Source: Bacteroidia bacterium (GTDB lineage Bacteria; Bacteroidota; Bacteroidia; AKYH767-A; OLB10). Taken from it: a DNA stretch of 50,874 nucleotides. The translations under genes and the position numbers were made by a program. Within the stretch, counting starts at the first letter, position 1. Every line of letters begins with the position of its first letter. The notes under the pieces are model-generated. The model was given only the letters and a program-made list of their open reading frames with translations, did no database searches and was not told where the DNA came from. The stretch covers positions 1-50,874 of the forward strand of contig JBIOHJ010000003.1 of assembly GCA_044448905.1 (NCBI GenBank), read 5' to 3'. Below, one piece after another: positions 894-44,092 of the stretch.

Positions 894-921
894 AAACTTT
901 AAACTTTAAACCTTAAACCTT
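894..921. repeat. Tandem 7-mer array (AAACTTT)2(AAACCTT)2
   Basis: Four 7-bp units read directly, just upstream of the holB -7 element. Confidence 0.8.
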
Positions 922-924
922 TTC

Positions 925-932
925 TATTTTTG
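925..932 (+). promoter_or_regulatory. Bacteroidota -7 promoter element TATTTTTG for holB
   Basis: Matches TAnnTTTG; 4 nt (CTCC) before the ATG at 937. Confidence 0.6.
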
Positions 933-936
933 CTCC

Positions 937-2082
937 ATGTTATTTTCCTCCATCATTGGTCAGCAAACGGTTAAGCAGCGCTTAATACAGGCAGTGCAGG
1001 ATAACCGCATTGCGCATGCTCAATTATTTTTTGGTGCCGAAGGGAGTGGAAGCCTTGCGTTGGCAATTGCTTTTGCTCAATATCTTTCGTGTGAAGACAG
1101 GAATGAAAATGACAGTTGCGGAAAATGTTCCTCCTGCGTCAAATACAACAAGCTCATCCATCCCGACCTTCACTTCTCATATCCGACTGCCCCGGTTAAA
1201 GACCGAAAAGCAAAGAGCGCTGAGTATGCAGGCGAATGGCGCGAAGCGGTGCTGGAAAACCCTTACCTGAGCTTACAGGATTGGTATGAGTTTATTGGTA
1301 TTGAGAACAAGCAGGGGTATATGTCGGTTGAAGAGAGCGGTGAAATTATCCGCCACCTGACTCTCAAATCGTACGAATCTAAATACAGGGTGATGATTAT
1401 ATGGATGGCAGAAAAGATGAGAACGGATGCATCCAACAAATTGCTCAAGATAATTGAAGAACCTCCCGACAATACAATTTTTATCCTGGTCACCGAAAAT
1501 TACGAACAGATTATCCAAACCATATTATCGCGCACACAGCTTGTTAAGGTGAACCGTGTTTCAGATAAAGAGTTAAGCGATGCGATAAAAGAAAAATTCA
1601 GCCTAAGCAATCAGGAAGCGCAGCGTATTGTTCATCTTGCTGATGGAAATTACAATGCTGCACAATCTCTTGCTAAGCAGGAATCGGGCAGCATCGAAAT
1701 AGAGAAAGAATTTATTGACTGGATGCGCATGTGCGTTCTGCTGAACAAACCCGATAAGCAAAGAGAATATTTTAAAATGCTCAATGATTGGATTGATGTG
1801 ATGGCAAAGGCGGGAAGAGAACGGCAGAAAAACTTTCTTCATTACGGGTTGGAAATTGCACGCGAATGCCTGATGACAAATTATGCAGATGCGTCATTGG
1901 TTCGCATAAACGATGAAGTCATTCCAACCTTCAGCCGTTTTGTAAAATTTATAAACTATCAGAACGCTGATTTATTTACCGAAGAGCTCAACAAAGCCAG
2001 CTTTCATATTGAACGCAATGCCAACCCACGCATTTTATTCTTAGATTTGTCGTTTAAAATGAACAGGATTTTGCAGGGCTGA
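937..2082 (+). CDS. holB: DNA polymerase III delta' subunit
   Basis: RIAHAQLFFG, CGKCSSC Zn motif, HPDLHF, SNKLLKIIEEPP, TILSR. Confidence 0.93.
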   Translation: MLFSSIIGQQTVKQRLIQAVQDNRIAHAQLFFGAEGSGSLALAIAFAQYLSCEDRNENDSCGKCSSCVKYNKLIHPDLHFSYPTAPVKDRKAKSAEYAGEWREAVLENPYLSLQDWYEFIGIENKQGYMSVEESGEIIRHLTLKSYESKYRVMIIWMAEKMRTDASNKLLKIIEEPPDNTIFILVTENYEQIIQTILSRTQLVKVNRVSDKELSDAIKEKFSLSNQEAQRIVHLADGNYNAAQSLAKQESGSIEIEKEFIDWMRMCVLLNKPDKQREYFKMLNDWIDVMAKAGRERQKNFLHYGLEIARECLMTNYADASLVRINDEVIPTFSRFVKFINYQNADLFTEELNKASFHIERNANPRILFLDLSFKMNRILQG

Positions 2083-2095
2083 TTAATTTTTTTAA

Positions 2096-2123
2096 AATCG
2101 TACATCGTACATCCCGAATCTTA
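2096..2123. repeat. Degenerate tandem 7-mer array AATCGTA CATCGTA CATCCCG AATCTTA
   Basis: Four 7-bp units in the holB-ricT spacer. Confidence 0.6.
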
Positions 2124-2133
2124 CAACAATAAT

Positions 2134-3258
2134 ATGAGTTGCACAAGCTGCGGAACCGGAAGCTGTAATAAATTAAATGTATTTGATTGGCTCTCGGATA
2201 TGGAATTGCCACCGGGTCAAAAGCCGTACAACATTGTTGAAGTGCGTTTTAAGGGAAGCCGCAAAGAATTTTTCCGGAATACCGAGTACCTCGAATTAAA
2301 AACAGGCGATATTATAGCTGTAGAGGCTTCACCCGGTCACGATATCGGAACGGTTTCTATGACCGGAGAACTGGTCAAATTACAATTGAAGAAAAAAGGG
2401 ATTACTGAAGCGTCAGAGGAAATAAAAAATGTTTACCGGATAGCCCGCTTTGCCGACCTCGAAAAATATGAAGTGGTAAAAGCGCTTGAAGTGAAAACCA
2501 TGTATCGCGCACGCGAATTTGCATCTTTCCTCCGATTGAAAATGAAATTAAGCGATGTGGAGTACCAGGGTGATGGCAAAAAAGCAACCTTTTTTTATAC
2601 TGCAGAAGAACGTGTTGATTTCAGGGAACTTATAAAAAAGCTTGCCGAGGAATTTAAAATACGCGTTGAAATGCGCCAGATTGGCTTACGGCAGGAGGCA
2701 GGACGTCTTGGCGGAATCGGTTCGTGCGGACGTGAGTTATGCTGTTCAACCTGGTTAACCGATTTTAAAACGGTTTCTACAAGCACAGCACGTTATCAGA
2801 ACCTTTCCTTAAACGCTGCAAAGCTGGCAGGGCAATGCGGAAAACTAAAATGCTGCCTTAATTATGAATTGGACAGTTATATGGATGCATTAAAAGACAT
2901 TCCGGATTCTGATATTAAGCTTGAAACCGCGAAAGGAACAGCCCTCCATCAGAAAACAGATATTTTCAAACGCATAATGTGGTATGCATATCTTAATCCC
3001 GAGGGGCATTCAATTAATTCCGATACCTGGATTGCATTGCCGGTTGATCGCGTAAAAGAAATTGTTGAGCTTAATAAAAAATCCATCAAGCCCGAAGAAT
3101 TAAAAACCGGAAATTTTGAAATTGAAGTTGCAGAACCTGATTATTCAGATGTAGTCGGGCAGGACAGCCTCACGCGTATGGACAGGCGAAAAAAGAAGAA
3201 AAAGAAAAAACACCATCGTCATCAGCAAAACAGGCAACCGGGTAAACCAGGTAATTAA
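2134..3258 (+). CDS. ricT: PSP1/YaaT-family regulatory Fe-S complex subunit
   Basis: FFYTAEERVDFRELIK, GGIGSCGRELCCSTW, KLAGQCGKLKCCLNYE; position between holB and gldH. Confidence 0.9.
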   Translation: MSCTSCGTGSCNKLNVFDWLSDMELPPGQKPYNIVEVRFKGSRKEFFRNTEYLELKTGDIIAVEASPGHDIGTVSMTGELVKLQLKKKGITEASEEIKNVYRIARFADLEKYEVVKALEVKTMYRAREFASFLRLKMKLSDVEYQGDGKKATFFYTAEERVDFRELIKKLAEEFKIRVEMRQIGLRQEAGRLGGIGSCGRELCCSTWLTDFKTVSTSTARYQNLSLNAAKLAGQCGKLKCCLNYELDSYMDALKDIPDSDIKLETAKGTALHQKTDIFKRIMWYAYLNPEGHSINSDTWIALPVDRVKEIVELNKKSIKPEELKTGNFEIEVAEPDYSDVVGQDSLTRMDRRKKKKKKKHHRHQQNRQPGKPGN

Positions 3259-3270
3259 GAACTACACCCA

Positions 3271-3768
3271 ATGTTCCGTATTAACACAATAACGGTAGCT
3301 TTTATATTTTTCTCGGGCATTTTAGTTTTGATTACCTCCTGCGACCCTTCGCGTGTGTTTGAAGAAAATAAAAAGCTTGATGACAATAATTGGGACAAGG
3401 ATAATGCACTTACTTTTTTAGTAAATATTGCCGATACCATTCATAATCACAATGTGTACATTAATGTGCGCAATGCGGGATTTTTTAATTTCAGCAACCT
3501 GTATCTTTTTATTAATACCCGTTTTCCGAATGGACAAATTGAACGGGATACACTGGAATGTATTCTTGCTTCACCCGATGGGCAATGGCTTGGCGATGGC
3601 TCAGGTGATATTTGGGACAACCGGATTTTGTTCAAAGAGAATGTTCGGTTTCCTATATCGGGGGAATACCGTTTTGAATTAATCCAGGCTATGCGCATTA
3701 ATCCCTTGCCGGGAATTATGGATGCCGGTATCCGTATTGAAAAGGCTGAAAAAAATCTGAAGAAATAA
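3271..3768 (+). CDS. gldH: Gliding motility lipoprotein GldH
   Basis: Lipobox ITSC; FSNLYLF, DTLECILA..DGQWLGDG.G, YRFELIQAMR..PLPGI.D.GIRIEK. Confidence 0.93.
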   Translation: MFRINTITVAFIFFSGILVLITSCDPSRVFEENKKLDDNNWDKDNALTFLVNIADTIHNHNVYINVRNAGFFNFSNLYLFINTRFPNGQIERDTLECILASPDGQWLGDGSGDIWDNRILFKENVRFPISGEYRFELIQAMRINPLPGIMDAGIRIEKAEKNLKK

Positions 3769-3776
3769 TAAAAGAT

Positions 3777-3830
3777 AGCCACAGATTCACAGATTATTTT
3801 TTTTAGATTTTAATCTGTGAATCTGTGGCT
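3777..3830. repeat. Perfect 20-bp inverted repeat built from CACAGATT octamers; possible bidirectional terminator
   Basis: AGCCACAGATTCACAGATTA - 14 nt - TAATCTGTGAATCTGTGGCT between convergent genes. Confidence 0.9.
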
Positions 3831-4459
3831 TAGATTATTTTTCTCAATTCAGCATAACATCCTCTCAGAAAATAAATAAACCAGCTTACAATTCCGAAGA
3901 GCTTTACAGCATCTTCCAAAAACGAATCTTCGGGTATGGGCATAGGCAGTAAATCAACAACCGTTGAGATTCCGATAAGCGCGAACGCAAGAGCAAGAAG
4001 CAGGTATTCTGTTTTTAAAATTGTTGAACGGAAAACAAATAAGTAGAGAAGTAAAATATTTCCATAAATAACATATACCCCTTTTTCTGGAATGCCAATG
4101 TAATCGGGAAGGGCGCTTTCATGTAACAGGAATAAATCATCCAGCATCAGAAGTGAAGTTACAAGCCCCGAATAAAAAAGAAATGCCCGAATTGTCCCCG
4201 TTGCATTTGCCTTTGGAATTATTCCCCTGGTAAAAAAACAAATTGCTGCACTTGCACACCACAACAGAATTCCAATGTTCGAAAAAAAGCCGGTGTAAAA
4301 AGGCGCATCCATAATTGCAGTGGGGTCCTGTGTAAAATGATCAAGCTCCACATCATATTCTGTTCCCAACAATAGCACTCCCGAAAGTAATGCAGTAGTG
4401 GCTGAAAAAACAATGATAAGTATTGGAGAGATATTTTTTAACTGTTCCTTTAATGTCAT
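3830..4459 (-). CDS. Hypothetical multi-pass membrane protein
   Basis: About 6 hydrophobic segments, LMLDDLFLLHE and LEDAVKLFG motifs; start placed at ATG 4459 (MTLKEQ) rather than the ORF-track TTG. Confidence 0.75.
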   Translation of the reverse strand: MTLKEQLKNISPILIIVFSATTALLSGVLLLGTEYDVELDHFTQDPTAIMDAPFYTGFFSNIGILLWCASAAICFFTRGIIPKANATGTIRAFLFYSGLVTSLLMLDDLFLLHESALPDYIGIPEKGVYVIYGNILLLYLFVFRSTILKTEYLLLALAFALIGISTVVDLLPMPIPEDSFLEDAVKLFGIVSWFIYFLRGCYAELRKII

Positions 4460-4648
4460 TTTATGATGGCCGAAGTTTAAATATAATGAGGCGAAAGTAA
4501 CAGGTAATTTATTTACTACAACAAATGTTGATAAAATGGTTTCAATAAAGCAATTTGTTAATAATCCTATTTGCATGGATTTCTTACAAAATCGTCTGAA
4601 CTCATATTGCAACTACTCTTTACGGAAAAGCGTAATAGGTAAGACTTT

Positions 4649-5779
4649 ATGATGAAGAAAATTTACACCGAACAATCTGATTTTTTAATATCCGATGCAA
4701 CCCGCAAGGAAATAGACTATAAGCTGAAGGAAGAAAAACTTATCTATAAGATTAAAGAAGAGCTGTACTGCCAAAACGGGTACCGTATTTTCTTTGATCA
4801 TTATGAAGAAGAATCCACGCATGTATTTATTGAAGAATATGCAAAGCGCAAAGCCTATTATATTTTAAACGGGCAGCGGATTTTGAGTGAAGAGGAAAGA
4901 GGGCAACTTTATTTCAACAATCTTGCAGGGTATTTTATCTGGCAGATTCAGCAAAAAAAACTATTCGACCTGCAGTGCTTATGGAGAGCCGGCAAAACTG
5001 AGCTGAAGAAAATTTCGGTAACCAAAGATTTTCTGCTCCTCGAAACACAAATAAAAGACTGCAAACTTGTAGATGAAATCACTGAAGCCGATTTGGAATT
5101 ATTTACAGAGTATATTTTATCGGGCGATTATTCCGAAATCAATCATGCCGGCAGCTGGCAGAATTTCGAACGGATAAAAGCCGGTGATAAGATGCTGTTT
5201 TCGACCATTCCCTCATGGTATGAGTTTTATGATAAGGCAAACGGAACAAACGGTTTGCTTTCATTGCCCGATGAAAAGGGAGAGAAGGAAAAATTTTATC
5301 TCGGTTTGTTAAAGCAAAACCAGGCAAATCATGATGAGAAAAAAGAAACGGAAGAACAGCCGTCATTAAAATTCAATTACAAGACGCTCGATTTTTTCAT
5401 AAACACTTTTGAAGATAAACAACTGTTAAAATATTTTTACGCTGCCGAAAAAAATCATCCCGAGTTGAATGCAAATGATGAACTGAACGAAGCGCTTTAT
5501 CTGTTACAATTGTCGGAAAAAATAATTCCTGTGCAAAAAAATAAAAACTGGAAAGAAGCAGTGATTAATGCAGCGCTTCAATTTAAGAAAAAGAAAATAG
5601 CCGAAGCATTGATACAGGTTTTTGATGAATACAAAATGCGCCTGAAAGCCGGCATTCCTTTTCAAACCGAAACCGATTTGCTGCGCCAGCAAATTGCAAA
5701 GGCGAAAGCGGATAGGTATAAGGAGCAGATTTTAAAAGCCCGCAAGTTGAACGGTGAATCGGCCGATTTTAATTTTTAA
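4649..5779 (+). CDS. Hypothetical cytoplasmic protein (376 aa)
   Basis: Long ORF; aromatic-rich core IQQKKLFDLQCLWRA...PSWYEFYD...LPDEKGEKEKFY; no recognisable domain. Confidence 0.8.
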   Translation: MMKKIYTEQSDFLISDATRKEIDYKLKEEKLIYKIKEELYCQNGYRIFFDHYEEESTHVFIEEYAKRKAYYILNGQRILSEEERGQLYFNNLAGYFIWQIQQKKLFDLQCLWRAGKTELKKISVTKDFLLLETQIKDCKLVDEITEADLELFTEYILSGDYSEINHAGSWQNFERIKAGDKMLFSTIPSWYEFYDKANGTNGLLSLPDEKGEKEKFYLGLLKQNQANHDEKKETEEQPSLKFNYKTLDFFINTFEDKQLLKYFYAAEKNHPELNANDELNEALYLLQLSEKIIPVQKNKNWKEAVINAALQFKKKKIAEALIQVFDEYKMRLKAGIPFQTETDLLRQQIAKAKADRYKEQILKARKLNGESADFNF

Positions 5780-5853
5780 CGGTTACTTCTTGTTTATTTT
5801 TTGCGATTTTCTTTTTGCTTACTTGTCTACGCAAACCAGTAAGTTGTTAACAC

Positions 5854-5912
5854 TAACCAGCCACTCGTTGCCCTTAACGAGAAAGCAGGTGTAAATCCCG
5901 TACCAATGGTTA
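5854..5912 (+). ncRNA. Candidate structured small RNA (three-way junction with a T-loop-like arm)
   Basis: TAACCA/TGGTTA closing stem; CTCGTT/AACGAG hairpin; GCAGG-TGTAAAT-CCCGT arm followed by ACCA; lies between convergent genes. Strand inferred from the T-loop-like arm. Confidence 0.55.
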
Positions 5913-5947
5913 AACTATTGCTTATAAAATAATTATGCTAATGTTTT

Positions 5948-8209
5948 TCAAAACTTCGCCCTCGCTTGTACCACAAAACTTCGCTGTTGCTGTAAATCGG
6001 CAGGGCGACCCATATATTCGTGGTTAGCTACATTTTTTACGATAAAGCCAATATCATAATGCTTTAAAAATGTATAAAAAATACGTGTATCAAAAGCCCA
6101 GTCGCCATCTGGGTGTGTTTCGCGATAATGTTTTACACCGTCAATTGCATAATTAAAAACATTATCAATATTTTCCATAAAGCTGTTGTACCGTACACTG
6201 GTACCAAAAATAACATGATTAAAAAAAGTAACTTCAATATCGCCTTTAAATTGCTGGCGGTAACGGTATTTTAAAACGTTAGTGGTATCGCTGTTTAGTT
6301 GTTTATTGATTTTATCAAAATCGCGATAAGTAGGATAAATGGAAGTATGCCCGGCTAAAATAGTAACGGGAAATTTCCACAAAGTTCCTTTTCCTGTTAA
6401 CGTAAAATCAAATCCCTGTATGCGGGTATTTCCAATATTTAATGAAGCAAACCCAATTCCGATTGCAGGCGGTACCCCGTACACACCAAAAGTAAATTCC
6501 ATCATATCCTCATACTCCTGCCAGAATCCGGCAATGTCAAGCGAGGCATTCCATTCGCTTATTTTAAAACCCTGGTTAATGCCAAATTCAGCAGTCCATC
6601 CTTTTTCGGGTTGCAGAGTATCGTTGGAAAAAATATTAATATCACCAACATTGGTTGTTATAAATTTTTCGGCAATAGAAGGAAAACGGTAACCCTCACC
6701 GTAAGAAGTGCGGAGATGAGTATTCTCAAATAAAGCATAATTAATTCCCGAACGGAAAACCGGGATGAATTGGGTTTTCACAGTATCAATGCGGTTTTGT
6801 TCCCAGCGAGCACCGAATGAAAAAATCCATTTGTTAAATTTATTATCAATTTGTGTATAGAAAGCAATGTTGTTGGCAAAATGATCGCCATATAATTCGC
6901 TCTTAACATCCGAATACATATCGGAAGTTCCAAAAGTCCAGGTCAGGTTTTCGCTGAATCTTTTCTGAAAAAGGTATTCACCATAATAAAGCGTTCCAAA
7001 GGATTGCTGGTTGGTATTATTATTATTATCGGTTTTAAAATAACGGGTTCGTATTTTATGAGTTTCGCCATTTTTATTTGCGTAGGTGATAAAAGGATCC
7101 ACATTAAATCGCACAGTGGTGTATTCGCTGAGCGTAGTAGTTGCAGTATCTAATCCGCCTTGCGGAATTAATGCACCTGTACTATCATCCTCCCATATAA
7201 AAAACAGCACCCCGTTAGTATGCATGTAATTAGCATTAACACCTGCCGATAATCCTTCGAGGTTTTTGTCAAAACTGTAACGTGTATTTGCGTTAACCCT
7301 GAAATGCTCTTCGTGTTCCCCCTGCTTGTAGCCCTCGTCTTTAAAATAATTTCCGGCTGCCACCAAATCAAACCTGCCGAATTTCTGGCTATGGCTTGCA
7401 CTCATTCCCTGTGTCATTTGCACGGTATCCCCACTCCAATCATACAATTCATTTTCGGGCGAATCGTAAACACCACCAAACAAAGTAATCTTTGTTTCGG
7501 GTTTTGATTTCGGGTAAGCTGTACGTATGTTAATGACTCCATTCATGGCCGATGAACCAAATAAAGCAGAAGATGCACCTTTCAGCACTTCAATTTGCTC
7601 GAGATTTTCGGTGGGAAGAAAACTCCATTTCACATCATTTGCATCGGCAGTAAGCATAGGCAAATCATCAACAAGCATTAAAACCCGGCTTCCGGCTCCA
7701 TAACTAAAACCGCTTCCTCCCCGGATATTCGCCTGCCCGTCAATAACGGTTACACCGGGTACTTGGTTAATGGCATCGTCCATCGAAGTGGTATTTGTGT
7801 TTTCTACAAATGAGGGAGAAAGCACAGTCATTGATACGGTAACCTCTTCTATTTTCTGTTCGAACTTTCCCGCACTAACTACCACGGTTCCCAATTCAGT
7901 TGATGATGGGATTAAATCAATATTAATAATTTTTGCTTCAGAAGGTTTTAATAAAATACTTCTTGTTGTGGTTTTATAGCCAATAAAACGAAATGCCAAG
8001 GCATGATCTCCCGATGTTGTATTAAGCATATATTTTCCCGAAGAGTCTGTTACCACTCCCGAAGTATCATCAACTATAACATTAACACCCGGCATTTTTT
8101 CTTTGGTTGTAGCATCGCGCACCAAGCCTATAATTACGCAATCCTGCGCTTGCATAACCAAACAATAAAAAACGAGTAAAAACAATAAAAAGAGTTTTTT
8201 GAAGTTCAT
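5948..8209 (-). CDS. TonB-dependent outer membrane receptor
   Basis: Signal peptide, N-terminal carboxypeptidase-like domain, VVVSAG, plug motif IEVLKGASSALFGSSAMNGVINI, C-terminal F; start placed at ATG 8209 (MNFKK). Confidence 0.92.
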   Translation of the reverse strand: MNFKKLFLLFLLVFYCLVMQAQDCVIIGLVRDATTKEKMPGVNVIVDDTSGVVTDSSGKYMLNTTSGDHALAFRFIGYKTTTRSILLKPSEAKIINIDLIPSSTELGTVVVSAGKFEQKIEEVTVSMTVLSPSFVENTNTTSMDDAINQVPGVTVIDGQANIRGGSGFSYGAGSRVLMLVDDLPMLTADANDVKWSFLPTENLEQIEVLKGASSALFGSSAMNGVINIRTAYPKSKPETKITLFGGVYDSPENELYDWSGDTVQMTQGMSASHSQKFGRFDLVAAGNYFKDEGYKQGEHEEHFRVNANTRYSFDKNLEGLSAGVNANYMHTNGVLFFIWEDDSTGALIPQGGLDTATTTLSEYTTVRFNVDPFITYANKNGETHKIRTRYFKTDNNNNTNQQSFGTLYYGEYLFQKRFSENLTWTFGTSDMYSDVKSELYGDHFANNIAFYTQIDNKFNKWIFSFGARWEQNRIDTVKTQFIPVFRSGINYALFENTHLRTSYGEGYRFPSIAEKFITTNVGDINIFSNDTLQPEKGWTAEFGINQGFKISEWNASLDIAGFWQEYEDMMEFTFGVYGVPPAIGIGFASLNIGNTRIQGFDFTLTGKGTLWKFPVTILAGHTSIYPTYRDFDKINKQLNSDTTNVLKYRYRQQFKGDIEVTFFNHVIFGTSVRYNSFMENIDNVFNYAIDGVKHYRETHPDGDWAFDTRIFYTFLKHYDIGFIVKNVANHEYMGRPADLQQQRSFVVQARAKF

Positions 8210-8287
8210 AGGTTTTTGGTTTATTTTGCCTGCAATATACAAACACATCACAAATTACAAACTACTATTTTTTTGAAGAATAAACTT

Positions 8288-9400
8288 ATGAATTCTTCAG
8301 GTGAAGATTTAAAATTAAAAATTGCGTTGACACTTATACCGGGTGTAGGGAATGTTATTGCAAAAACTTTAGTCAGCTATTGCGGAAGTGTTGAAGGCAT
8401 TTTTAAGGAAAAGAAAAAAATGCTGGAAAAAATCCCTGACATCGGCCATAAAACGGCCGAAGCAATAGTTGATTATAAGACATTTGATAAAGCGGAAAGT
8501 GAAATTGAGTTTATTGAGAAATTTAAAATCATTCCTTTATTTTATCTCGACAAAAATTATCCGCAGCGGTTAAAAAATTGTTCCGACAGCCCTGTTCTTT
8601 TATTTTATAAAGGCAGCATGGATCTGAACAAAGAAAAATTTGTTGCCATAGTGGGCACGCGTAATGCAACTGCTTACGGAAAAGAAATAACTCAAAAATT
8701 AGTTGAGGATTTGAAAAAAACAAATGCAACTATCGTGAGCGGGCTTGCTTACGGGATTGACATTTGTGCGCATAAGGCGGCACTAAAAAATGATCTGGAC
8801 ACAATCGGAGTGCTTGGTCATGGGCTGGATATTATTTATCCGCAGTTGCATCGTAATGTAGCATTAAAGATGATGGAACAAGGAGGCTTGCTCACCGAAT
8901 TTCTTTCTGAAACAAAGCCCGACAAAGAAAACTTTCCGGCACGCAACCGTATCATTGCGGGAATTTCAGATGCAGTAATTGTGGTTGAAGCAGCGAAAAA
9001 AGGCGGGGCATTAATTACAGCAGAAATTGCCAACTCGTATAACCGTGATGTTTTTGCCGTACCGGGCAGAGTAAACGATACTTTTTCGGAGGGCTGCAAT
9101 CACCTTGTCAAAATTAACAAAGCAGTATTGATTGAGTCGGCAAAAGATATTGAATACATAATGGGATGGGAGGAAAAGAAATCAAAAAAAGAAAAACAAA
9201 ACCAGCGCAGCCTGTTCATTGAGTTAAATCCTGAAGAAAAATCATTAATTGAATTATTGAACAAATCCGGTGCACTTAATATTGATTCAATTTGCAGCAA
9301 CGCATCTTTCCCGGTGAGCAAAGTTTCAGCAACATTATTAAACCTTGAATTTAAAGGAGTGTTAAAATCATTGCCCGGGAAGATGTACGAACTAATTTGA
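8288..9400 (+). CDS. dprA: DNA-processing protein DprA
   Basis: AIVGTR, IVSGLAYGID, FPARNRIIAG, GGALITA, VFAVPGR, C-terminal winged helix; start placed at ATG 8288. Confidence 0.96.
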   Translation: MNSSGEDLKLKIALTLIPGVGNVIAKTLVSYCGSVEGIFKEKKKMLEKIPDIGHKTAEAIVDYKTFDKAESEIEFIEKFKIIPLFYLDKNYPQRLKNCSDSPVLLFYKGSMDLNKEKFVAIVGTRNATAYGKEITQKLVEDLKKTNATIVSGLAYGIDICAHKAALKNDLDTIGVLGHGLDIIYPQLHRNVALKMMEQGGLLTEFLSETKPDKENFPARNRIIAGISDAVIVVEAAKKGGALITAEIANSYNRDVFAVPGRVNDTFSEGCNHLVKINKAVLIESAKDIEYIMGWEEKKSKKEKQNQRSLFIELNPEEKSLIELLNKSGALNIDSICSNASFPVSKVSATLLNLEFKGVLKSLPGKMYELI

Positions 9401-9435
9401 TTTTTAAAATAATGATTAATTTTATAAAAAATACA

Positions 9436-10338
9436 ATGAGAGTTTTCTACATAGTTTTATTTTCCCTCCTTAATTTTCCATTAAGTGCGCAAAACTATGT
9501 TCCGTTTGCTTTGGACAGTGCTGCATGGTCGGTTGACTTTATCACTCCGGGGCCATTTTCTCAGGAGTTTCATGTTCCGAGATTATATTTTATGAATGGC
9601 GATTCAGTGATCAACGGGTTGAATTACCATAAGACATACCAGTATGGAGATTCTATACCATTTAACTCAGGAGGATTGCTTACTTCCTTAATCCGTGAAC
9701 AAAACAAAATTATTTACTGCAGGTATTTTAATTGGAATAATTTTTCTTCGGAATTTGAACTTTATAATTTTAACCTGACAATTGGCGATACTTTTTCATT
9801 TCCAAACATTATTGATTCTGTTAAAATGGTTCTTATTTCTGTTGATTCAGAATATACAACAACAGGTTATCGGAAAGCTTTCAATTTTAATATTGTTTAT
9901 AATCCATCAGCAGCATTTTATATGAATCCGCGCTGGGTAGAAGGTATTGGTGATATAGTGAATGGAATTGTTTATCTGGAAGTTCCAATACTTGACTGGT
10001 GGTGTCAGGCATTGTGTTATAGCGAAAGTTATTTTTTAGTATGGAATTGGAACCAGGGCAATTGTTGGATAACGGGAATGGACGAAACGACACATTCAGA
10101 AAAAATTAAACTCTTAAATAACCCTTCCCTTGAAAAAATTCAAATTCTCTTTCCCGATAATCTTTTCATTGAAAAGGAAATCACAGTGCATGAGATTTCA
10201 GGAAAAATAGTTGGACAGTATAAATTTTATGATCAGGAATTTACATTATTTAAACATTCTCTTGGCAGAGGCATGTATTTTCTGGATATAAAATCAGGCG
10301 ATGATTTTCTTAAAACATATAAGATTATTTTTTTGTAA
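9436..10338 (+). CDS. Secreted protein of unknown function with a T9SS type-A sorting domain
   Basis: Signal peptide ending SAQ; C-terminus NNP...ISGKIV...LGRGMYFL...KIIFL; start placed at ATG 9436. Confidence 0.78.
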   Translation: MRVFYIVLFSLLNFPLSAQNYVPFALDSAAWSVDFITPGPFSQEFHVPRLYFMNGDSVINGLNYHKTYQYGDSIPFNSGGLLTSLIREQNKIIYCRYFNWNNFSSEFELYNFNLTIGDTFSFPNIIDSVKMVLISVDSEYTTTGYRKAFNFNIVYNPSAAFYMNPRWVEGIGDIVNGIVYLEVPILDWWCQALCYSESYFLVWNWNQGNCWITGMDETTHSEKIKLLNNPSLEKIQILFPDNLFIEKEITVHEISGKIVGQYKFYDQEFTLFKHSLGRGMYFLDIKSGDDFLKTYKIIFL

Positions 10339-10368
10339 TAAAATATTCATAATTAATTTTAAACTTTC

Positions 10369-11556
10369 ATGTACTCAACTCTGAAACCCATTCTTGAAAA
10401 AGAATTAAATGCAATCCGTGAAGCCGGATTATATAAACAGGAAAGAATTATTTCTACTGCCCAAGGCGCAGAAATTATTGCCAACGGAAAAAAGGTAATT
10501 AATTTTTGCGCAAATAATTATTTAGGATTATCGTCTCATCCAAAAATTATTGCAGCAGCCCAAAAAGCAATTGACACACACGGTTATGGGATGTCATCCG
10601 TACGGTTTATTTGCGGAACGCAGGATATTCACAAAGAGCTTGAAGAAAAAATTTCAAAATTTCTTGGTACCGAAGATTCCATCCTGTATGCAGCAGCTTT
10701 TGATGCAAACGGTGGTGTGTTTGAACCATTGTTTAACGAACAAGATGCCATTATTTCCGATGAACTGAATCATGCTTCCATTATAGATGGTGTCCGTTTA
10801 TGCAAAGCCGACCGTCATCGCTACAAACACAATGACATGAATGTGTTGGAAGAAATACTGAAAACAACTCAGGAAAAACGCCATCGTATCATCGTATCAG
10901 ACGGAGTTTTTTCAATGGACGGAACAATTGCTCAACTTGATAAAATCTGCGATCTTGCTGATAAATATAAAGCGTTAGTGATGATTGATGAATGTCATGC
11001 ATCAGGATTTATGGGTAAGACGGGAAGAGGTACGCATGAATATTGTAATGTGGTGGGGCGCATTGATATTATTACCGGAACATTAGGCAAAGCATTGGGC
11101 GGTGCATCGGGCGGATTCACCGCAGGCAGAAAAGAAATTATTGAACTGCTTCGTCAACGCTCGCGACCATATCTCTTTTCAAATTCATTAGCTCCGTCAA
11201 TAACCGGAGCTTCTATTGCAGTATTTGATATGCTTACCGAAACAACTGCACTGCGTGATAAGCTTTGGGAAAACACAAAATATTTCCGCACAAAAATTAC
11301 TGAAGCGGGCTTTGACATTAAGCCTGGTGAGCATCCCATCGTTCCCATTATGCTGTACGAGGCAAAACTTGCACAGGAGTTTGCTGCGCAATTAATGGAT
11401 GAAGGAATTTATGTAATCGGATTTTTTTATCCGGTGGTTGCAAAGGGAAATGCGCGAATCCGGGTACAGATATCTGCAGCTCACGAAAAGCATCATCTGG
11501 ATAAAGCAGTTACAGCGTTTGCCAAAGTGGGGAAGGGGCTAAGTGTCCTGAATTAA
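10369..11556 (+). CDS. kbl: Glycine C-acetyltransferase (2-amino-3-ketobutyrate CoA ligase)
   Basis: [31 protein letters not shown]-lysine motif [21 protein letters not shown]. Confidence 0.97.
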
Positions 11557-11563
11557 ACTCCCC

Positions 11564-12943
11564 TTACAAAAGCGTTCCGGAAAGCAAAATTGCTGCTATT
11601 GAAAAGTAAATTATCAAACCTGTAACGTCAACAAGGGTTGCAATAAACGGTGCGGAAGATGTAGCCGGATCAGCACCAAAACGCTTGAGCACTAACGGCA
11701 ACATTGAACCCATGATGGTTCCCCACGTCACTACACCGATTAATGCAAATGCAATCGTAAATCCAATCAGCATCCAATGCGGGCCATAATATCCGCCAAC
11801 TGCTTCGGCTGCTGATACACGAATAAACCCCAAAGCTCCTAATATTATTCCTAAAATCAACCCCGAGATAATTTCTCTTTTCATAATATGCCACCAGTCT
11901 TTTAAAGTCACTTCACCTAGTGCCATTGCACGAATAATTAACGTTGCAGCCTGCGAACCGGTGTTGCCACCACTGGAAACAATAAGCGGAATAAATAATA
12001 CAAGCACAACGGCCTTTGCAATCTCATTTTCAAAAAAGCTCATTGCAGATGCGGTAAATAATTCACCGATGAATAATACTACTAACCAAGGTGCGCGTTT
12101 GCGAATCATTTTAGCAATTGAAACTTCCATGTACGGCTCATCCAATGCTTCTACGGCACCTAACTTCTGAATATCTTCTGTATCTTCTTCTTCTGCAAGC
12201 TGCAGTACATCATCAACTGTTATTATGCCAAGCAACGTTCCTGATATATCAATAACAGGAAGGGCTACCCGTTCATGCTTTTTAAATTCATTAATCGCCA
12301 CTTCCTGATCATCAGTTACAAAAAGCGAGGCGAACTTTCCGTCTGAGATGTCCTTAACTTTGGTTGAAATTTCAGCCAGCAGCAATTCACCCGCTTTAAT
12401 GTCATCAATCAGCTTACCTTTTTCGTCCACAACAAAAAAAACATCCAGAGTTTCGCTGGTTGCACCGTATGCACGAATGTATTCAAGAACCTGTGAAACT
12501 GTCCAATCCTGTTTCAATGCAATGAAATCAGGAGTCATCAATCGCCCGATACTGTTTTCGGGATAACCCAAAAGTTTTAAAGCAACTGCCCGCTCGTTTT
12601 GCGTAAGAAGACGCAGATGCTTATTAATTCCCTCAGGCGAAAGCTCTTCGAGCAATCCGGTACGCACATCAGGTGCAATGTCATTTAATATGAGCGCCAC
12701 CTGCCGGTGAGGTAATATATCAAGTAAATCTTTTTGAAAACTTTTGTCGAGCAATTCAAAGGTTTGCGCAGCCTGTTGCCGGTCCATACAACGGAATAAA
12801 TAAATCTGGAGCCCTTCGGGTGAATCTTTTAACGCTTCGGCAAGCTCGGTAGGAAGCAATTCAGCAACACTTCGCTTTAACGCGGTTGCGTCACCGGTCT
12901 GAAGTTTCGCAAGAAGCTCGTTTCGTGCTTCGACTGTTTCCAT
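11564..12943 (-). CDS. mgtE: Magnesium transporter MgtE
   Basis: CBS pair (GRLMTPDF, GIITVDD), GGNTGSQA, DPATSSAPFIATLVDVTG. Confidence 0.97.
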   Translation of the reverse strand: METVEARNELLAKLQTGDATALKRSVAELLPTELAEALKDSPEGLQIYLFRCMDRQQAAQTFELLDKSFQKDLLDILPHRQVALILNDIAPDVRTGLLEELSPEGINKHLRLLTQNERAVALKLLGYPENSIGRLMTPDFIALKQDWTVSQVLEYIRAYGATSETLDVFFVVDEKGKLIDDIKAGELLLAEISTKVKDISDGKFASLFVTDDQEVAINEFKKHERVALPVIDISGTLLGIITVDDVLQLAEEEDTEDIQKLGAVEALDEPYMEVSIAKMIRKRAPWLVVLFIGELFTASAMSFFENEIAKAVVLVLFIPLIVSSGGNTGSQAATLIIRAMALGEVTLKDWWHIMKREIISGLILGIILGALGFIRVSAAEAVGGYYGPHWMLIGFTIAFALIGVVTWGTIMGSMLPLVLKRFGADPATSSAPFIATLVDVTGLIIYFSIAAILLSGTLL

Positions 12944-12998
12944 GCCAGTTTTTACCGTTTAGATATTGTTAGTACAGATTCTTAAAAAAATTTTTGAA

Positions 12999-13793
12999 TT
13001 ATACCGCTACCGTTGCTTTAATTGCGGGGTGAGGATCGTAATTAATTAATGAAAAATCTTCGAATCTAAAATCAAAAATATTTTTAACAACAGGATTCAT
13101 GATTATTGAAGGTAACGGTCTTGGAGTTCTTGATAATTGCAAATATGCCTGTTCAAAATGATTGGAATAAATATGAGCATCGCCAAATGTGTGAATAAAC
13201 TCTCCCGGAATCAGGTTGCAGACCTGCGCTACCATCATCGTCAGCAAACTATAAGAAGCAATGTTAAAAGGAACTCCGAGGAAAATATCCGCGCTGCGCT
13301 GATAAAGCTGGCATGACAACCTGTTGTTAGTTACGTAAAACTGAAATAAAACATGGCATGGGGGTAATTTCATTTTATCAATTTCCCCTACATTCCATGC
13401 GCTAACGATTAATCTCCGCGAATCGGGATTTTTTTTAATCTGCCCGATCACATTGCTGATTTGATCAATTGTTCGCCCGTCAGCAGCTGTCCAGGAGCGC
13501 CATTGATGGCCATATACTGGGCCCAGATCACCATTCTCATCAGCCCATTCATTCCAGATGGTTACATTATTTTCATTTAAATATTTTATGTTGGTGTCAC
13601 CTTTCAAAAACCAAAGCAGCTCGTGAATGATAGACTTTGTGTGCAGCTTTTTTGTTGTAAGTAATGGGAACCCTTTGCTTAAATCAAAGCGCAACTGGTA
13701 ACCGAAAACACTTCGCGTACCGGTTCCTGTCCGGTCACTTTTATCGATGCCGGTATCGAGAACATGTTTTAATAAATCAAGATATTGCTGCAC
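12999..13793 (-). CDS. thyA: Thymidylate synthase
   Basis: [37 protein letters not shown]; GTG start. Confidence 0.98.
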
Positions 13794-13810
13794 TAATACT
13801 TTTTATTAAA

Positions 13811-14590: not shown

Positions 14591-14684
14591 ATTTATTTTT
14601 TCCTTATCGTGCAAGTTTACAAAAATTCAGCAGAATAAAATCAACTTTATATAACTTTGAACCATTATTTTCGTTAATCTATTT

Positions 14685-14834
14685 ATGAGACCACAACTAA
14701 ACAGAATTTTTTCTTTCCTGCTCCTTCTTTCCTGCTTTCTGTTTCTCTTTTCTTCTTGTTTTATTTTCAAAAAGAAATGCGATTGCCCAAAAGTTGGCAA
14801 AGTAAAAACCGAGGTTGCAAAAAAGCCCTGTTGA
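14685..14834 (+). CDS. Small putative lipoprotein (49 aa) with CDCPK motif
   Basis: Not in the ORF track; MRPQLNRIFSFLLLLSCFLFLFSSCFIFKKKCDCPKVGKVKTEVAKKPC*; hydrophobic core and FSSC lipobox; A/T-rich context before ATG. Confidence 0.65.
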   Translation: MRPQLNRIFSFLLLLSCFLFLFSSCFIFKKKCDCPKVGKVKTEVAKKPC

Positions 14835-14960
14835 ATTTTGACTTTTACCTTCTTCCCCCAATAAAATCTTGCCTAATTTAGCACGCTTTTTAAAAAAGTT
14901 AGTAGCATTACAAACGGTTTATAGTTATTGCTAATTCTTAAATTCGTATTTCGCAGATAA

Positions 14961-15200
14961 ATGAAACTCTCAGAAATAAAAACCGGACAGCGATGCATTA
15001 TCGAATCATTTACCGATGAGTTTCTGAAACTAAAACTGATGGAAATGGGTTGCATACCCGGTGAGGAAATTGAAGTGGTTCGTGTGGCGCCTCCCGGTGA
15101 TCCCATTGCAATTAATGTAGCTAATTATACGTTGAGCTTGCGGCTGAGTGAAGCGGAAACAGTCGTTGTAAAACCATCTATTCAAACACCTGCTAAATAA
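14961..15200 (+). CDS. feoA: Ferrous iron transport protein A
   Basis: KLMEMGCIPGEEI..VRVAP.GDPIAI, LSLR.SEA; directly upstream of feoB. Confidence 0.95.
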   Translation: MKLSEIKTGQRCIIESFTDEFLKLKLMEMGCIPGEEIEVVRVAPPGDPIAINVANYTLSLRLSEAETVVVKPSIQTPAK

Positions 15201-32135: not shown

Positions 32136-32217
32136 TGCAGAATTTTTTTTTGCGAAGATAGGAATTTGATGTACTGATGTGCTGATTAACAAATTGGCAA
32201 ATTAATACTTTTACGGA

Positions 32218-34546: not shown

Positions 34547-34594
34547 GCCACTGATTACACAGATTTACGCTGATTAATTAGTGTAATCTGTGGC
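34547..34594. repeat. Imperfect inverted repeat built from CACWGATT units
   Basis: GCCACTGATTACACAGATTTACGCTGATT-AATTAGTGTAATCTGTGGC; same family as 3777-3830. Confidence 0.85.
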
Positions 34595-39863: not shown

Positions 39864-39922
39864 AGCAATCAGTAAACAGTTCGGAGTAACTACTACATAC
39901 TCTGAACTGTTTACTGATTACT
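39864..39922. repeat. 25-bp inverted repeat whose arms are 7-mer arrays
   Basis: AGCAATCAGTAAACAGTTCGGAGTA - 9 nt - TACTCTGAACTGTTTACTGATTACT (2 mismatches), between divergent trpS and plsC. Confidence 0.9.
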
Positions 39923-42050: not shown

Positions 42051-42060
42051 TGTTTCACTA

Positions 42061-42732
42061 TTACTCGCGGGTAAATTCAAAGCATAAGTAACAAATATTT
42101 TTTCCTTCCTTGCGGAATATTTTTTCGTATGTGGTTTGAATGGAGAGGTCATTATTAAACCCTTCGGTCTGATAAAGATCATGTGAGCAGAAAAGGAATT
42201 TTCCTTTTTGATTTTTCAAAACTTCAATTGTGTAATCAAAAAGCCTGAGGCTGTCGGTTTTTAAATGTATTAACCCTTTTGATGTAAGCATGTGTTTATA
42301 CTTTTCAAGAAAATGAGGGGACGTTAACCTTCGGTTTTCTCTGCTGATTTGCGGTTGGGGATCGGGGAAGGTGAACCAGATTTCAGAAATCTCATTTGCA
42401 CCAAAAAATTTTTCAATCAGTTCGATGCGGGTACGAAGGAATGCAACATTCTTGCTGTTATTTTCGGCTGATGTTTTGGCACCGCGCCACATACGAGCCC
42501 CTTTAATATCAACTCCAATAAAATTTTTTTCAGTGTACCGTTGCGCAAGCCCGACTGTATATTCACCTTTCCCGCATCCTAATTCCAAAACTACCGGGTT
42601 GTTGTTTTTAAAAATAGTTGCATTCCAGTTCCCTTTTAGTTCACTGTCTGGCGAATGAAAATCAATCACAGGTTGAAATACATTCGAAAATGTTTCCATC
42701 TCAGCCCATCGTTTAAGTTTATTTTTACCCAT
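42061..42732 (-). CDS. trmB: tRNA (guanine-N7)-methyltransferase
   Basis: LELGCGKGEY, GVDIKGAR, FPDPQ, HLKTDS, TTYE. Confidence 0.96.
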   Translation of the reverse strand: MGKNKLKRWAEMETFSNVFQPVIDFHSPDSELKGNWNATIFKNNNPVVLELGCGKGEYTVGLAQRYTEKNFIGVDIKGARMWRGAKTSAENNSKNVAFLRTRIELIEKFFGANEISEIWFTFPDPQPQISRENRRLTSPHFLEKYKHMLTSKGLIHLKTDSLRLFDYTIEVLKNQKGKFLFCSHDLYQTEGFNNDLSIQTTYEKIFRKEGKNICYLCFEFTRE

Positions 42733-42793
42733 GATAATTATGAACGGACAAAAGTATTATACATTCGTATATTCGTAACATATTCGAAATTCA

Positions 42794-43900
42794 TTGAAAG
42801 CAAAAAGAAAGAAAGTGTTAATCGCCCCGCTCAACTGGGGGCTTGGTCATGCAACACGGTGCATTCCTGTTATTAACGAATTTGTAAGACAGAGTGCAGA
42901 GGTTTTGATTGCTTCCGATGGAAGACCGCTTGATCTTTTGAAAAAAGAATTTCCTTCGTTTCATTTTATCGAATTCCCCGGATACCACATAGAATATTCT
43001 GCAAACGGTTCAATGGTGTTTAAAATGCTTTTATCATCACCCAAAATTTTTGTTTCCATCAATCGTGAACATGAATTGCTGGAAGAAATTGTAACAAAAC
43101 ATAAAATAGACTTGGTTTTTTCAGACAATCGTTACGGCTGCTGGAGCAAACATGCGTATTCAGTATTTATGACACATCAGATTTACATTAAATGCCCTGT
43201 TCATTTAAAATGGTTCGAGCCAATGCTGTATAAAATCAATAAACGATATATCTCAAAATACAATGAATGTTTGGTGCCCGATTTTGAGGGTGAAGAAAAT
43301 CTATCGGGCAATCTTTCCCATCAAACAAAACTTAAGGGGATAAAATTTATTGGCCCGCTATCGCGCTTTGCAGAAAAAAAATCTGAGAAAAATACTCCGT
43401 TGACCTTCGGAACTGAAAAATTTGACTTAATAGTAATTTGCTCCGGACCTGAACCGCAACGAACTATTTTCGAAAAATTAATTGCCGAAGAGGTTTTGAA
43501 AACAAATTTTAAGGTAGTTTTAGTGAGAGGAGTAACTGAAAATGGGAAAACACTGGAACAAAAAAATAATCTTCGTATTATTTCATACGCTGATACCAAT
43601 GAAATACAAAGCCTTATCGAATCATCCGAAATTGTTATCAGCCGCCCCGGATATTCTACCATAATGGATTTGGCGGTGCTTGGAAAAAAAGCAATATTTA
43701 TTCCAACACCTGGTCAAACCGAACAGGAATATCTTGCCGAATATTTTATGAATAAAAATATTTTTTACTGTACTCCGCAAAACAATTTTAATTTAAAGGA
43801 GGCTTTGGAAAAAGCAAAGGCTTTTTCAGGAATAAAAAAATCTATACAACCCGAACTTTTAAGCAAGGCCATTTCCTCAACCCTTTCAAAAATCAAATAA
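42794..43900 (+). CDS. GT-B fold glycosyltransferase (GT28-like)
   Basis: APLNWGLGHATR, SGPEPQR, SRPGYSTIMDL, IPTPGQTEQEYLA; TTG start. Confidence 0.9.
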   Translation: MKAKRKKVLIAPLNWGLGHATRCIPVINEFVRQSAEVLIASDGRPLDLLKKEFPSFHFIEFPGYHIEYSANGSMVFKMLLSSPKIFVSINREHELLEEIVTKHKIDLVFSDNRYGCWSKHAYSVFMTHQIYIKCPVHLKWFEPMLYKINKRYISKYNECLVPDFEGEENLSGNLSHQTKLKGIKFIGPLSRFAEKKSEKNTPLTFGTEKFDLIVICSGPEPQRTIFEKLIAEEVLKTNFKVVLVRGVTENGKTLEQKNNLRIISYADTNEIQSLIESSEIVISRPGYSTIMDLAVLGKKAIFIPTPGQTEQEYLAEYFMNKNIFYCTPQNNFNLKEALEKAKAFSGIKKSIQPELLSKAISSTLSKIK

Positions 43901-43918
43901 ATTTATTTCCTTTGTGCT

Positions 43919-44092
43919 TGAATCGGTTTTCTCTCTTATAATAGGGAGGACTAAAAGGGAATCGCGTGAAAATCGCGAACAGTCCCCGCTGCTGTAAGTT
44001 CTATAGTAGCTTTCACATTTGTTGCCACTGCCCCGCCTCAGGCGGGATGGGAAGGCGTGAAAGAAGAACAAGTCAGAAGACCTGCCGGTTCA
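43919..44092 (+). ncRNA. Cobalamin riboswitch
   Basis: AAAAGGGAATCGCGTGAAAATCGCGAACAGTCCCCGCTGCTGTAA, GCCACTG...GGGAAGGC, B12 box AAGTCAGAAGACCTGCC; closing stem TGAATCGG/CCGGTTCA; upstream of a TonB receptor. Confidence 0.96.

Follow-up and report, generated by a model that had tools for sequence, protein, structure and literature searches.

The subject of this analysis is a window of 50,874 bases (~39% G+C) from a Bacteroidia bacterium (GenBank assembly GCA_044448905.1, contig JBIOHJ010000003.1, positions 1 to 50,874) and the families of small repeats in its intergenic spacers and reading frames. We find an excess of tandem heptamers together with a small set of long hairpins whose arms are built from tandem units and, with moderate confidence, we favor a joint reading in which the heptamer arrays arose in place, the hairpins are repeat-armed structures without an open reading frame (ORF), and several further sites are due to chance or unrelated. 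Three of the hairpins, B1, B2, and B4, form a dispersed, genome-specific family with one unit and a CCAC/GTGG clamp, and the hairpins have the architecture of the flanks of four-helix-bundle genes, as shown in other genomes. About half of the 18 sites listed in the original prediction for this window are ordinary or chance occurrences.

Results

Heptamer arrays

All 18 sites of the original prediction are present where it had placed them, with very unequal strengths. The prediction had argued for a process that creates or spreads such arrays rather than chance slippage, and had proposed a scan for periods and palindromes against shuffled sequence, which we ran on the window. In our array scan against 200 block-wise dinucleotide shuffles, three period-7 arrays (A1, A4, and A5) had a score of at least 17, compared to none in all 200 shuffles; at a score of at least 10, there were four compared to a shuffle mean of 0.15, and none of the 200 shuffles reached four. 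At the latter score, the window scan gave no arrays with periods of 4–6, 9–13, or 15, and the single period-8 array (10882–10899) lies outside the listed sites and is matched in 18 of 200 shuffles; a signal at period 14 is a harmonic of 7. Because enrichment is found at period 7 alone, the array excess is specific to heptamers, and the proposed departure from chance is seen at this period but not at periods 8 and 9. For comparison, we searched genome contigs with the window E2 acyltransferase protein as query, giving 80 loci (1.43 Mb) from Bacteroidota and Bdellovibrionota. Period-7 arrays with a score of at least 12 number three in the 51 kb of the window and 10 in the 1.43 Mb of these loci, where they occur in five of the 80.

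Tandem Repeats Finder (TRF) identified head-to-tail heptamers in at least three copies at A1, A4, A5, and A7, with A2 and A6 slightly below this number. Thus, the heptamer arrays of the original prediction comprise three strong ones (A1, A4, and A5) and three weaker ones (A2, A6, and A7), while A3 is too weak to call and A8 is a hairpin. A1 (894–921; (AAACTTT)2(AAACCTT)2, 4.0 copies by TRF; array score 17) lies in the 60-nt spacer of the divergent pgk and holB genes, stopping 15 nt short of the holB ATG. The weak A2 (2097–2113; ATCGTAC in 2.4 copies by TRF; score 10) is located ~20 nt upstream of the PSP1 ATG, within the 51 nt that separate this gene from holB. A4 (20834–20868, plus strand; TTCAATC in 5.0 copies, TRF score 63) encodes, in frame, FQSSIFNFQSSI in the type IX secretion system (T9SS) sorting domain of an FG-GAP protein (19153–20961), in which Pfam places Por_Secre_tail at residues 523–593. 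The gene convergent to it encodes a Kelch protein (20962–22620), the sorting domain of which contains both A5 (21035–21067, minus strand; CAGTTTG in 4.7 copies, or CAAACTG on the coding strand, TRF score 59), which encodes PTANCKLQTANW in frame, and A6 (21138–21157, minus strand; GAAATTG in 2.9 copies by TRF, score 9), which encodes ISNFQFQ. A7 (24690–24727, plus strand) consists of degenerate AGAAGTC heptamers with periods 7, 14, and 21 (by TRF, 24695–24720, 3.7 copies, 78% match) in the flexible linker of the E2 acyltransferase, i.e. between the lipoyl and E3-binding domains (Pfam, residues 5–76 and 119–151); the E2 gene of locus L039 holds similar 7- and 8-mer arrays. A1 and A4 are predicted to be unstructured as RNA.

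We also observed that CAGAAGT/CAGGAGT/CGGAAGT heptamers recur at unrelated positions of three genomes, at 24695–24720 of the window, at 11128–11160 of L010, and at 345–379 of L091, which may be due to chance. L010 has a non-coding stretch of ~740 nt (11022–11760) that is dense in 7- and 8-mer arrays (AGGCATA, AGTCAGA/AGTCGGA, TTCCATTC in 11 copies, and others) and also carries a repeated longer unit with a CCCAGATARCTATCNGGG hairpin. Two candidate relationships were rejected: A4 and A6 as hairpin partners, with a complementarity of 74%, and membership in the TAACTGA family, of which the window contains no tandem copies and four single copies with both strands counted.

The position of the strongest arrays inside genes allows comparison with homologs. 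P0002, a metagenome ortholog of the FG-GAP protein with 79% identity, has the same length as the window protein across A3 and A4, one residue more at the candidate hairpin C1, and reads LQSSVVSGLLSF at A4 where the window has FQSSIFNFQSSI. For the Kelch protein, the alignment comprised the C-terminal 110 residues of the query and of 10 near-full-length matches, with P0012 (942 residues, 55% coverage) left out; the homologs P0009 (54% identity) and P0010 (51%) have the same length at A5 and A6 and retain the peptides (S/V)N(V/C)(Q/K)LQT(T/V)NF at A5 and ISNF(Q/N)FQ at A6. Given the equal length in P0002, the arrays inside genes are not insertions and, therefore, not empty sites of the kind that the original prediction had proposed for all families; a gene-less hairpin in the sucB-lpd spacer of L066, which belongs to another family, speaks for that idea (below). 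With the equal lengths and retained peptides in the Kelch homologs, it follows that the in-gene arrays formed, or were kept, in place. The Kelch arrays are old or under protein-level constraint.

Repeat-armed hairpins

The strongest inverted repeats in the window are B1, B2, B4, and A8, and hairpins with a stem score of at least 13 number four compared to a mean of 0.15 in 60 shuffles. Thus, the proposed scan bears out period 7 and the long hairpins but no other period. B1 (3777–3830) has perfect 20-nt arms, each consisting of two copies of CACAGATT and an AGCCAC clamp, around a loop of 14 nt; it fills the 61-nt spacer of the convergent gldH gene and a 260-aa ORF and folds with −32.6 kcal/mol (z −10.2). 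B2 (23645–23701) has 28-nt arms (86%) with ~9-nt units CCACGAATTA/CACTAATTTG/CACTAATT, occupies most of the 74-nt spacer of the convergent usp and DNA-alkylation-repair genes, and folds with −25.9 kcal/mol (z −6.7). B4 (34547–34594, minus strand; 19-nt arms, 84%, starting GCCACTGATTA/CACAGATT) adjoins the stop codon of the DUF420 gene upstream of an 84-aa membrane ORF in the cytochrome oxidase cluster and folds with −19.1 kcal/mol (z −5.3). A8 (39864–39922), which had been listed as an inverted heptamer array, is a hairpin with arms of 22–25 nt made of the three heptamers AATCAGT/AAACAGT/TCGGAGT and a loop of 9 nt; its 25-nt arms are 92% complementary, the period-7 score of the arm is 0.6, and the folds on the two strands have −36.3 and −32.4 kcal/mol (z −10.8 and −9.9). 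It lies in the 91-nt spacer of the divergent trpS and acyltransferase genes. For each of the four hairpins, none of 200 shuffles was as stable. Accordingly, the palindromes based on 8- or 9-mers in the original prediction stand for B1, B2, and B4 (z −5.3 to −10.2), while B3 is marginal (z −2.0).

In all four hairpins, the arms consist of 2–3 tandem units of 7–10 nt and the loops, of 1–21 nt, contain no ORF. The arms of A8 differ from the unit of the other three. The pattern CCACNRATT(N)CACNRATT, which is common to the arms of B1, B2, and B4, occurs six times in the window, in none of 100 shuffles, and in none of 92 loci (1.44 Mb), the set over which motif absence was counted, but because it was written after the sites had been seen, this estimate of chance is too favorable; a looser regular expression for the shared unit gave the same outcome. 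Three copies of the shared-unit hairpin are visible in 51 kb. The occurrence of one unit and clamp at three separate gene ends implies that local slippage alone is insufficient to explain them. No mobility mechanism or target duplication is visible in the B1, B2, and B4 sequences, and a blastn search with B1 against plasmids gave chance-level Firmicutes matches (E ≥0.3).

B1, B2, B3, and B4 are located at 3′ ends with a T-rich run on at least one strand (after B1 on both strands and after B2 and B4 on the minus strand), and their stems are long and AT-rich. The window has five convergent spacers of at least 60 nt, three of which are filled by B1, B2, and B3, and six other convergent pairs that abut or overlap. 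We observed that convergent spacers of ~60–75 nt are mostly taken up by these hairpins and that the pairs with zero spacer include 20961/20962, 33219/33220, 25667–25670, and 47124–47131. A promoter consensus scan of positions 1–20000 gave counts equal to shuffles.

Two further palindromes were noted. One, at 49721–49746, is perfect (AGCAGTTCTTA-AATT-TAAGAACTGCT), has non-tandem arms, and separates a GDSL-lipase-like gene from a 141-aa ORF. The other is a perfect 13-bp inverted repeat at 27486–27523 (AGGAATAAATATT ... AATATTTATTCCT) in the 3′ part of the luxE-like ORF, and its stem score ranks fourth.

Flanks of four-helix-bundle genes in other genomes

The original prediction had suggested that the repeats resemble the flanks of small genes, including four-helix-bundle genes. 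In L043 (Flavihumibacter soli), an inverted-repeat scan of the comparison loci identified a 121-residue ORF enclosed by 25-nt arms AGATTTTAGATATGAGATTTTAGAC; this ORF (L043:45–407) encodes a four-helix-bundle protein (TIGR02436, E 6e-37). Using this protein in tblastn, we detected six further genes, all in Cytophagales loci between sucB and lpd and all flanked by inverted runs of AGTAYT-type 7–8-mers. The L043 protein also matches 27 plasmid records, mostly cyanobacterial, and we examined 12 of these, picked across genera (L081–L092). All 12 plasmid genes are placed tightly between neighboring genes and have adjoining tandem arrays of 7–8 nt (heptamers in 10), with units including GGGAGTA, GGGAACA, AAAAGCT in 15 copies, and GGTGACA. 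The sites of these genes include cas6/cas4 in Pseudanabaena and Anabaena sp. 90, cas10/cmr3 in Picosynechococcus, and, on a Nostoc edaphicum plasmid, a position between the genes for the ribonucleotide reductase (RNR) beta and alpha subunits.

To quantify these flanks, we compared the upstream flank with the reverse-complemented downstream flank in 200 shuffles for 19 genes (seven from the loci and 12 from plasmids). Inverted tandem-array flanks that no shuffle matched, mostly of heptamers, were found for 14 of the 19 four-helix-bundle (S23p or intervening sequence (IVS) protein) genes, i.e. 10 of the 12 on cyanobacterial plasmids and four of the seven in Bacteroidota loci, and the proposed likeness was therefore confirmed for this gene family. 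When flanks were trimmed at the neighboring genes, six of the 12 plasmid genes and four of the seven in the loci had such flanks. The flanks in L014 were matched in two of 200 shuffles. RNAalifold predicts that the flanks of the six sucB-lpd elements pair around the ORF in a stem of 13 bp, for which there is little covariation.

No member of the other gene families that had been named was found. Among 33 small ORFs adjoining arrays, five are four-helix-bundle genes, and there is no GxxExxY, DUF559, or GIY-YIG gene among the 27 that we ran against NCBIfam; the six outside that run are the five four-helix-bundle genes and the DUF420 gene of the window, which Pfam names. A GxxExxY and GIY-YIG motif scan of all ORFs of the loci gave two candidates, neither of which matched a family.

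Turnover in the suc spacers

The two suc spacers of the comparison loci provide information on relatives. The sucB-lpd spacer measures 6–62 nt in Bdellovibrionota, 101–160 nt with ordinary hairpins in three Cytophagales loci, and 431–488 nt in the six loci with a four-helix-bundle gene. In L066, by contrast with the latter, it contains a 123-nt gene-less hairpin with arms of TGAGTAG in five copies and the complement (minimum free energy −39.7). Further gene-less heptamer-armed hairpins are present in L055 and L042. In the sucA-sucB spacer of a related group, L044, L054, L068, and L076 have arrays of different units, all ending just before the sucB start, and L062 has none; because arrays differ or are absent in this spacer, we conclude that they turn over among relatives.

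Weak or otherwise explained sites

The remaining sites of the original prediction are weak, marginal, at chance level, or otherwise explained. A3 (20689–20718, plus strand) is a degenerate CAGTTAA/CAGGTGG/CAGCAG/CAGTTGG run in frame in the FG-GAP sorting domain that TRF missed and that is too weak for an array call; CAGTTGG/CAGTCAG units also occur in L039 (494–523, in the E2 gene) and L010, which may likewise be due to chance. B3 (27645–27700) comprises three 8-mers (TGCAAAGA/TGCAAAGG/CACAAAGA) and an imperfect inverted partner in the 62-nt spacer of the convergent genes for the luxE-like protein and a TonB-dependent receptor; it was missed by TRF, folds with −12.3 kcal/mol, and is equaled in six of 200 shuffles. 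The two proposed octamer arrays are not above chance: B5 (32167–32186; TGATGTAC in 2.5 copies between the divergent tyrS and epimerase genes) has a TRF score of 33 and is below 9 in the array scan, and B6 (42760–42795; loose ATATTCG-type repeats between the divergent trmB and glycosyltransferase genes) was detected neither by TRF nor by the array scan.

The REP-like hairpins of the original prediction (C1 and C2) belong to a class at chance frequency. Perfect GC-rich stems of at least 7 bp number three at two places compared to a shuffle mean of 2.1, and 37 of 100 shuffles reach the observed number. C1 is a real, unremarkable 8-bp stem inside the FG-GAP gene, and we rejected it as a dispersed REP-like element because its pattern is found in none of the 92 loci and because of the frequency of the class. 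C2 and D1 are both in the luxE-like gene, below the 7-bp criterion, and at chance level, while D2, the other hairpin predicted to belong with D1, was rejected as a repeat hairpin because it is a stem of the cobalamin riboswitch at 43907–44103. A small CCC-GATARCTATC-GGG hairpin of array-rich spacers has an exact match in L010 only and was rejected as a relative of D1.

Genes of the window and comparison loci

A Pfam scan of 46 window ORFs indicates Bacteroidota chromosomal housekeeping genes, including gldH, TonB-dependent receptors, a cytochrome oxidase cluster, tyrS, and trpS, and identifies a T9SS C-terminal sorting domain in four proteins. No tRNA gene was detected in the window and Rfam found no rRNA in it. 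The only Rfam family in the window is the cobalamin riboswitch (43907–44103, plus strand, 108 bits), and at E ≤1 no other match was found at any of the sites. Downstream of the riboswitch are a TonB-dependent receptor gene (44127–46049) and a DUF5074 gene, likely a B12 uptake operon. We also note a small FeoA-like ORF (14961–15200, plus strand) upstream of feoB within a 598-nt spacer that appeared empty in a list of ORFs of at least 100 aa.

Among the 80 loci, the best E2 identity is 71%, there is no synteny with the window, and no locus has more than three genes in common with it. The E2 proteins of two contigs of metagenome-assembled genomes, L054 (65%) and L057 (62%), are as close to the window E2 as those of Bacteroidota loci, and the sucA-sucB spacer of L054 resembles Sphingobacteriales-type loci; the record titles, Rhizobium sp. 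for L054 and Bifidobacteriaceae for L057, look wrong.

Discussion

Because there is no length change compared to the ortholog, the unit differs from site to site, and there is turnover at one spacer, we suggest that the heptamer arrays originated locally, with replication slippage in a 7-nt register as the most likely mechanism. They would persist at places where they do little harm, i.e. just upstream of start codons, in the E2 linker, and in those parts of T9SS sorting domains that vary. The hairpins would be ORF-less versions of the architecture that brackets S23p or 23S rRNA IVS protein genes elsewhere, in which a long stem results from the pairing of two inverted tandem arrays. At the RNA level, the hairpins would form stems of 19–28 bp at gene ends or between cistrons and, by analogy with rRNA intervening sequences, these could serve as transcription stops or RNase III substrates. 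Most plausibly, the hairpins would thus have a role in termination or RNase III processing, in the form of long gene-end RNA stems, and they may be targets for, remnants of, or look-alikes of gene-carrying elements.

Several observations weigh against this reading. The A5 and A6 peptides are retained at 51–54% identity, which is more easily reconciled with selection on the protein or an old array than with neutral slippage of recent date. A terminator scan of positions 1–20000 found no excess over shuffles and missed B1, and the shared-unit pattern was, as noted, defined after the fact. As the original prediction had stated, the window holds no small selfish gene: tblastn with the L043 protein gave no match to a four-helix-bundle gene or fragment at E ≤10, and the unnamed ORFs of the window match no NCBIfam family. 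Moreover, no window unit was found beside any small gene. In the E2 and Lpd tree, the six gene-bearing sucB-lpd loci form one clade (SH-aLRT support of 100) and L066 belongs to another Cytophagales family, arguing for one old insertion and an independent hairpin rather than a strict pair of empty and filled alleles. Five of the 19 four-helix-bundle genes (L004, L028, L084, L085, and L014) have no significant inverted flanks, with direct arrays in L085. Finally, the small-subunit gene of pntA in L045 (16388–16818) is flanked on both sides by inverted 8-mer arrays, the one in L038 (17069–17271), likewise from Chitinophagaceae, has adjoining tandem arrays, and arrays also lie beside secG, an FKBP isomerase gene, and other ordinary genes; thus, arrays are not exclusive to four-helix-bundle genes.

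Taken in full, the original prediction would make every family a set of empty, non-autonomous sites. The selfish elements behind them, with small genes of the four-helix-bundle, GxxExxY, DUF559, or GIY-YIG type, would reside in other parts of the genome and would generate or spread the arrays. We regard this as possible but doubtful. The inverted tandem arrays around 14 of 19 four-helix-bundle genes are in its favor, as are the positions of these genes wedged into operons (RNR beta/alpha, cas6/cas4 twice, cas10/cmr3, and sucB/lpd) and the gene-less hairpin at the sucB-lpd site of L066; the single unit of B1, B2, and B4 implies spread or a common sequence-specific factor, and published hypotheses, discussed in PMC4990558, regard IVS elements as mobile. 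It does not account for in-gene arrays that are not insertions or for a heptamer unit that differs at almost every site, as local origin predicts, and the list includes a riboswitch, a linker, and chance hairpins. The window has no such gene, three of the four gene families were never encountered, and B1, B2, and B4 lack visible signs of mobility. A bolder version, which we consider probably incorrect, is that arrays and hairpins would be footprints or docking sites of an undescribed IVS-like selfish class, in which an array-bracketed four-helix-bundle gene would colonize operon spacers of Bacteroidota and Cyanobacteria, be removed by RNase III, and have its arrays generated or homogenized by its own machinery; the CCACNRATT hairpins and A8 would then belong to this class without carrying an ORF, with their maintenance or movement provided in trans.

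At the other extreme, the hairpins could be ordinary intrinsic terminators and the arrays ordinary microsatellites, with their likeness a coincidence. The location of B1, B2, and B3 in three of the five larger convergent spacers, of B4 at a stop codon, and the T-rich runs suit terminators, and short arrays are present in many genomes (PMC4692102). We nevertheless consider this explanation unlikely, given the enrichment of period 7 alone, a degenerate 17–18-nt unit that three hairpins share and of which 1.44 Mb of other loci contain no copy, AT-rich arms of 19–28 nt that are far longer than the stems of the terminator scan, and the location of A8 in a divergent promoter region rather than at a gene end. 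Alternatively, the start-codon arrays could tune translation as binding sites for ribosomes or for proteins of the S1, cold-shock, or CsrA type, as proposed for TAACTGA in PMC4679880, and A8 could be an operator for trpS and the acyltransferase gene. A1 and A2 end 15–20 nt before start codons, the arrays of L044, L054, L068, and L076 end just before sucB, and A1 and A4 are predicted to be unstructured. This explanation seems improbable to us because units that differ per site fit no single binding specificity; also, the related L062 lacks arrays at the sucA-sucB spacer, A4 and A5, the strongest arrays, lie within genes, and no regulator is known or encoded nearby. Least credible is that A4 and A5 are contingency loci that switch T9SS-dependent secretion on and off by slippage. 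A change of one unit in either array causes a frameshift that costs the sorting domain its conserved end, and phase variation by heptamers is reported in other bacteria, but there are only ~5 copies, each array has one mismatch, and the A5 peptide is conserved in distant homologs.

In cyanobacteria, Xanthomonas, and Beggiatoaceae, heptamer arrays were recognized decades ago, and no consensus is known on how they arise or what they do. Four-helix-bundle "S23p" genes, for their part, rank with the most common small genes that lack an explanation. In our sample, arrays and genes occur together in 14 of 19 cases in two phyla and outside rRNA, and heptamers have been described in one rRNA IVS (PMC4990558); our literature searches found no paper that ties heptamer arrays to four-helix-bundle genes outside rRNA. 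If the link is general, it would provide a testable handle on both puzzles and would explain many odd gene-end hairpins in Bacteroidota. For annotation, caution is advisable for ORFs that cross such arrays and for short ORFs in these spacers.

Comparison with known systems

The original prediction had named three precedents, i.e. cyanobacterial heptamers, repetitive extragenic palindromic (REP) sequences with their associated tyrosine transposases (RAYT), and Rickettsia palindromic elements. The latter are insertions of ~100–150 nt, and the window repeats resemble them in being in frame inside protein-coding genes. They differ in that no residues are added compared to orthologs at A3, A4, A5, and A6, and at C1 the window protein is one residue shorter than P0002; thus, nothing has been inserted here. 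With REP sequences and bacterial interspersed mosaic elements (BIME) and with REPIN-RAYT systems, the hairpins have in common short imperfect palindromes at gene ends or in convergent spacers that are dispersed within the genome. A conserved GTAG-type head is a feature of REP sequences. In contrast, the window hairpins have no GTAG-type head that we could see and their arms are internally tandem, and no RAYT-type (IS200/IS605-like Y1 transposase) domain was found by Pfam among the 46 window ORFs scanned.

Heptamer arrays include the short tandemly repeated repetitive (STRR) sequences of heterocystous cyanobacteria, and Nostoc also has small dispersed repeats. The highly iterated palindrome HIP1 (GCGATCGC) has no copies in the window and, by descent, the cyanobacterial precedent is thus inapplicable. 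A cyanobacterial origin of the window was rejected for this absence and because its gliding and T9SS genes are indicative of Bacteroidota. The window arrays nevertheless resemble STRR and other heptamer-array systems in having 2–6 copies and an excess of period 7, in lying near start codons and gene ends, and in occasional in-frame copies and inverted pairs capable of forming stem-loops. According to PMC4679880, TAACTGA arrays adjoin start codons in Beggiatoaceae, cyanobacteria, and five Bacteroidetes; according to PMC4692102, which does not mention S23, heptamers (GGGAATC/GGGGAYT) are over-represented in Xanthomonas and Nostoc, with ~70 convergent pairs per Xanthomonas genome, and polymerase slippage is proposed as their cause with credit to an earlier survey. 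Unlike these systems, which have one dominant unit per genome, the unit in the window changes from site to site, and three of the six window arrays are in the coding sequence of secreted proteins.

The hairpins come closest to 23S rRNA IVS of Coxiella and Leptospira (PMC4990558). According to that paper, the Coxiella IVS, which is described as a selfish element, has an S23p ORF in the loop of a 28-bp terminal-inverted-repeat stem, is excised by RNase III, and carries 3–4 tandem GACAGAT heptamers upstream of the ORF in a strain-variable number. The likeness consists of the long terminal-inverted-repeat stem, tandem heptamers in the region of the 5′ arm, and the setting in a host transcript. Stems of ~20 bp or more, as in IVS, are found in B1 (20 bp, perfect), B2 (28 nt, 86%), and A8 (22–25 nt), with B4 close to this length (19 nt, 84%), and the 20–28 bp of B1, B2, and A8 would, by analogy, be long enough for RNase III. 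GACAGAT and the B1/B4 unit CACAGATT (3780–3795 and 34558–34565) also have the core ACAGAT in common, which may be a coincidence. Unlike IVS, the window hairpins have no ORF in their loops of 1–21 nt and lie between protein genes rather than in rRNA, and the units of B1, B2, and B4 are 8–10 nt rather than heptamers. Because they lack an ORF and lie outside rRNA, we classify these hairpins as working like ORF-less elements of the IVS or REP type and not as members of either class.

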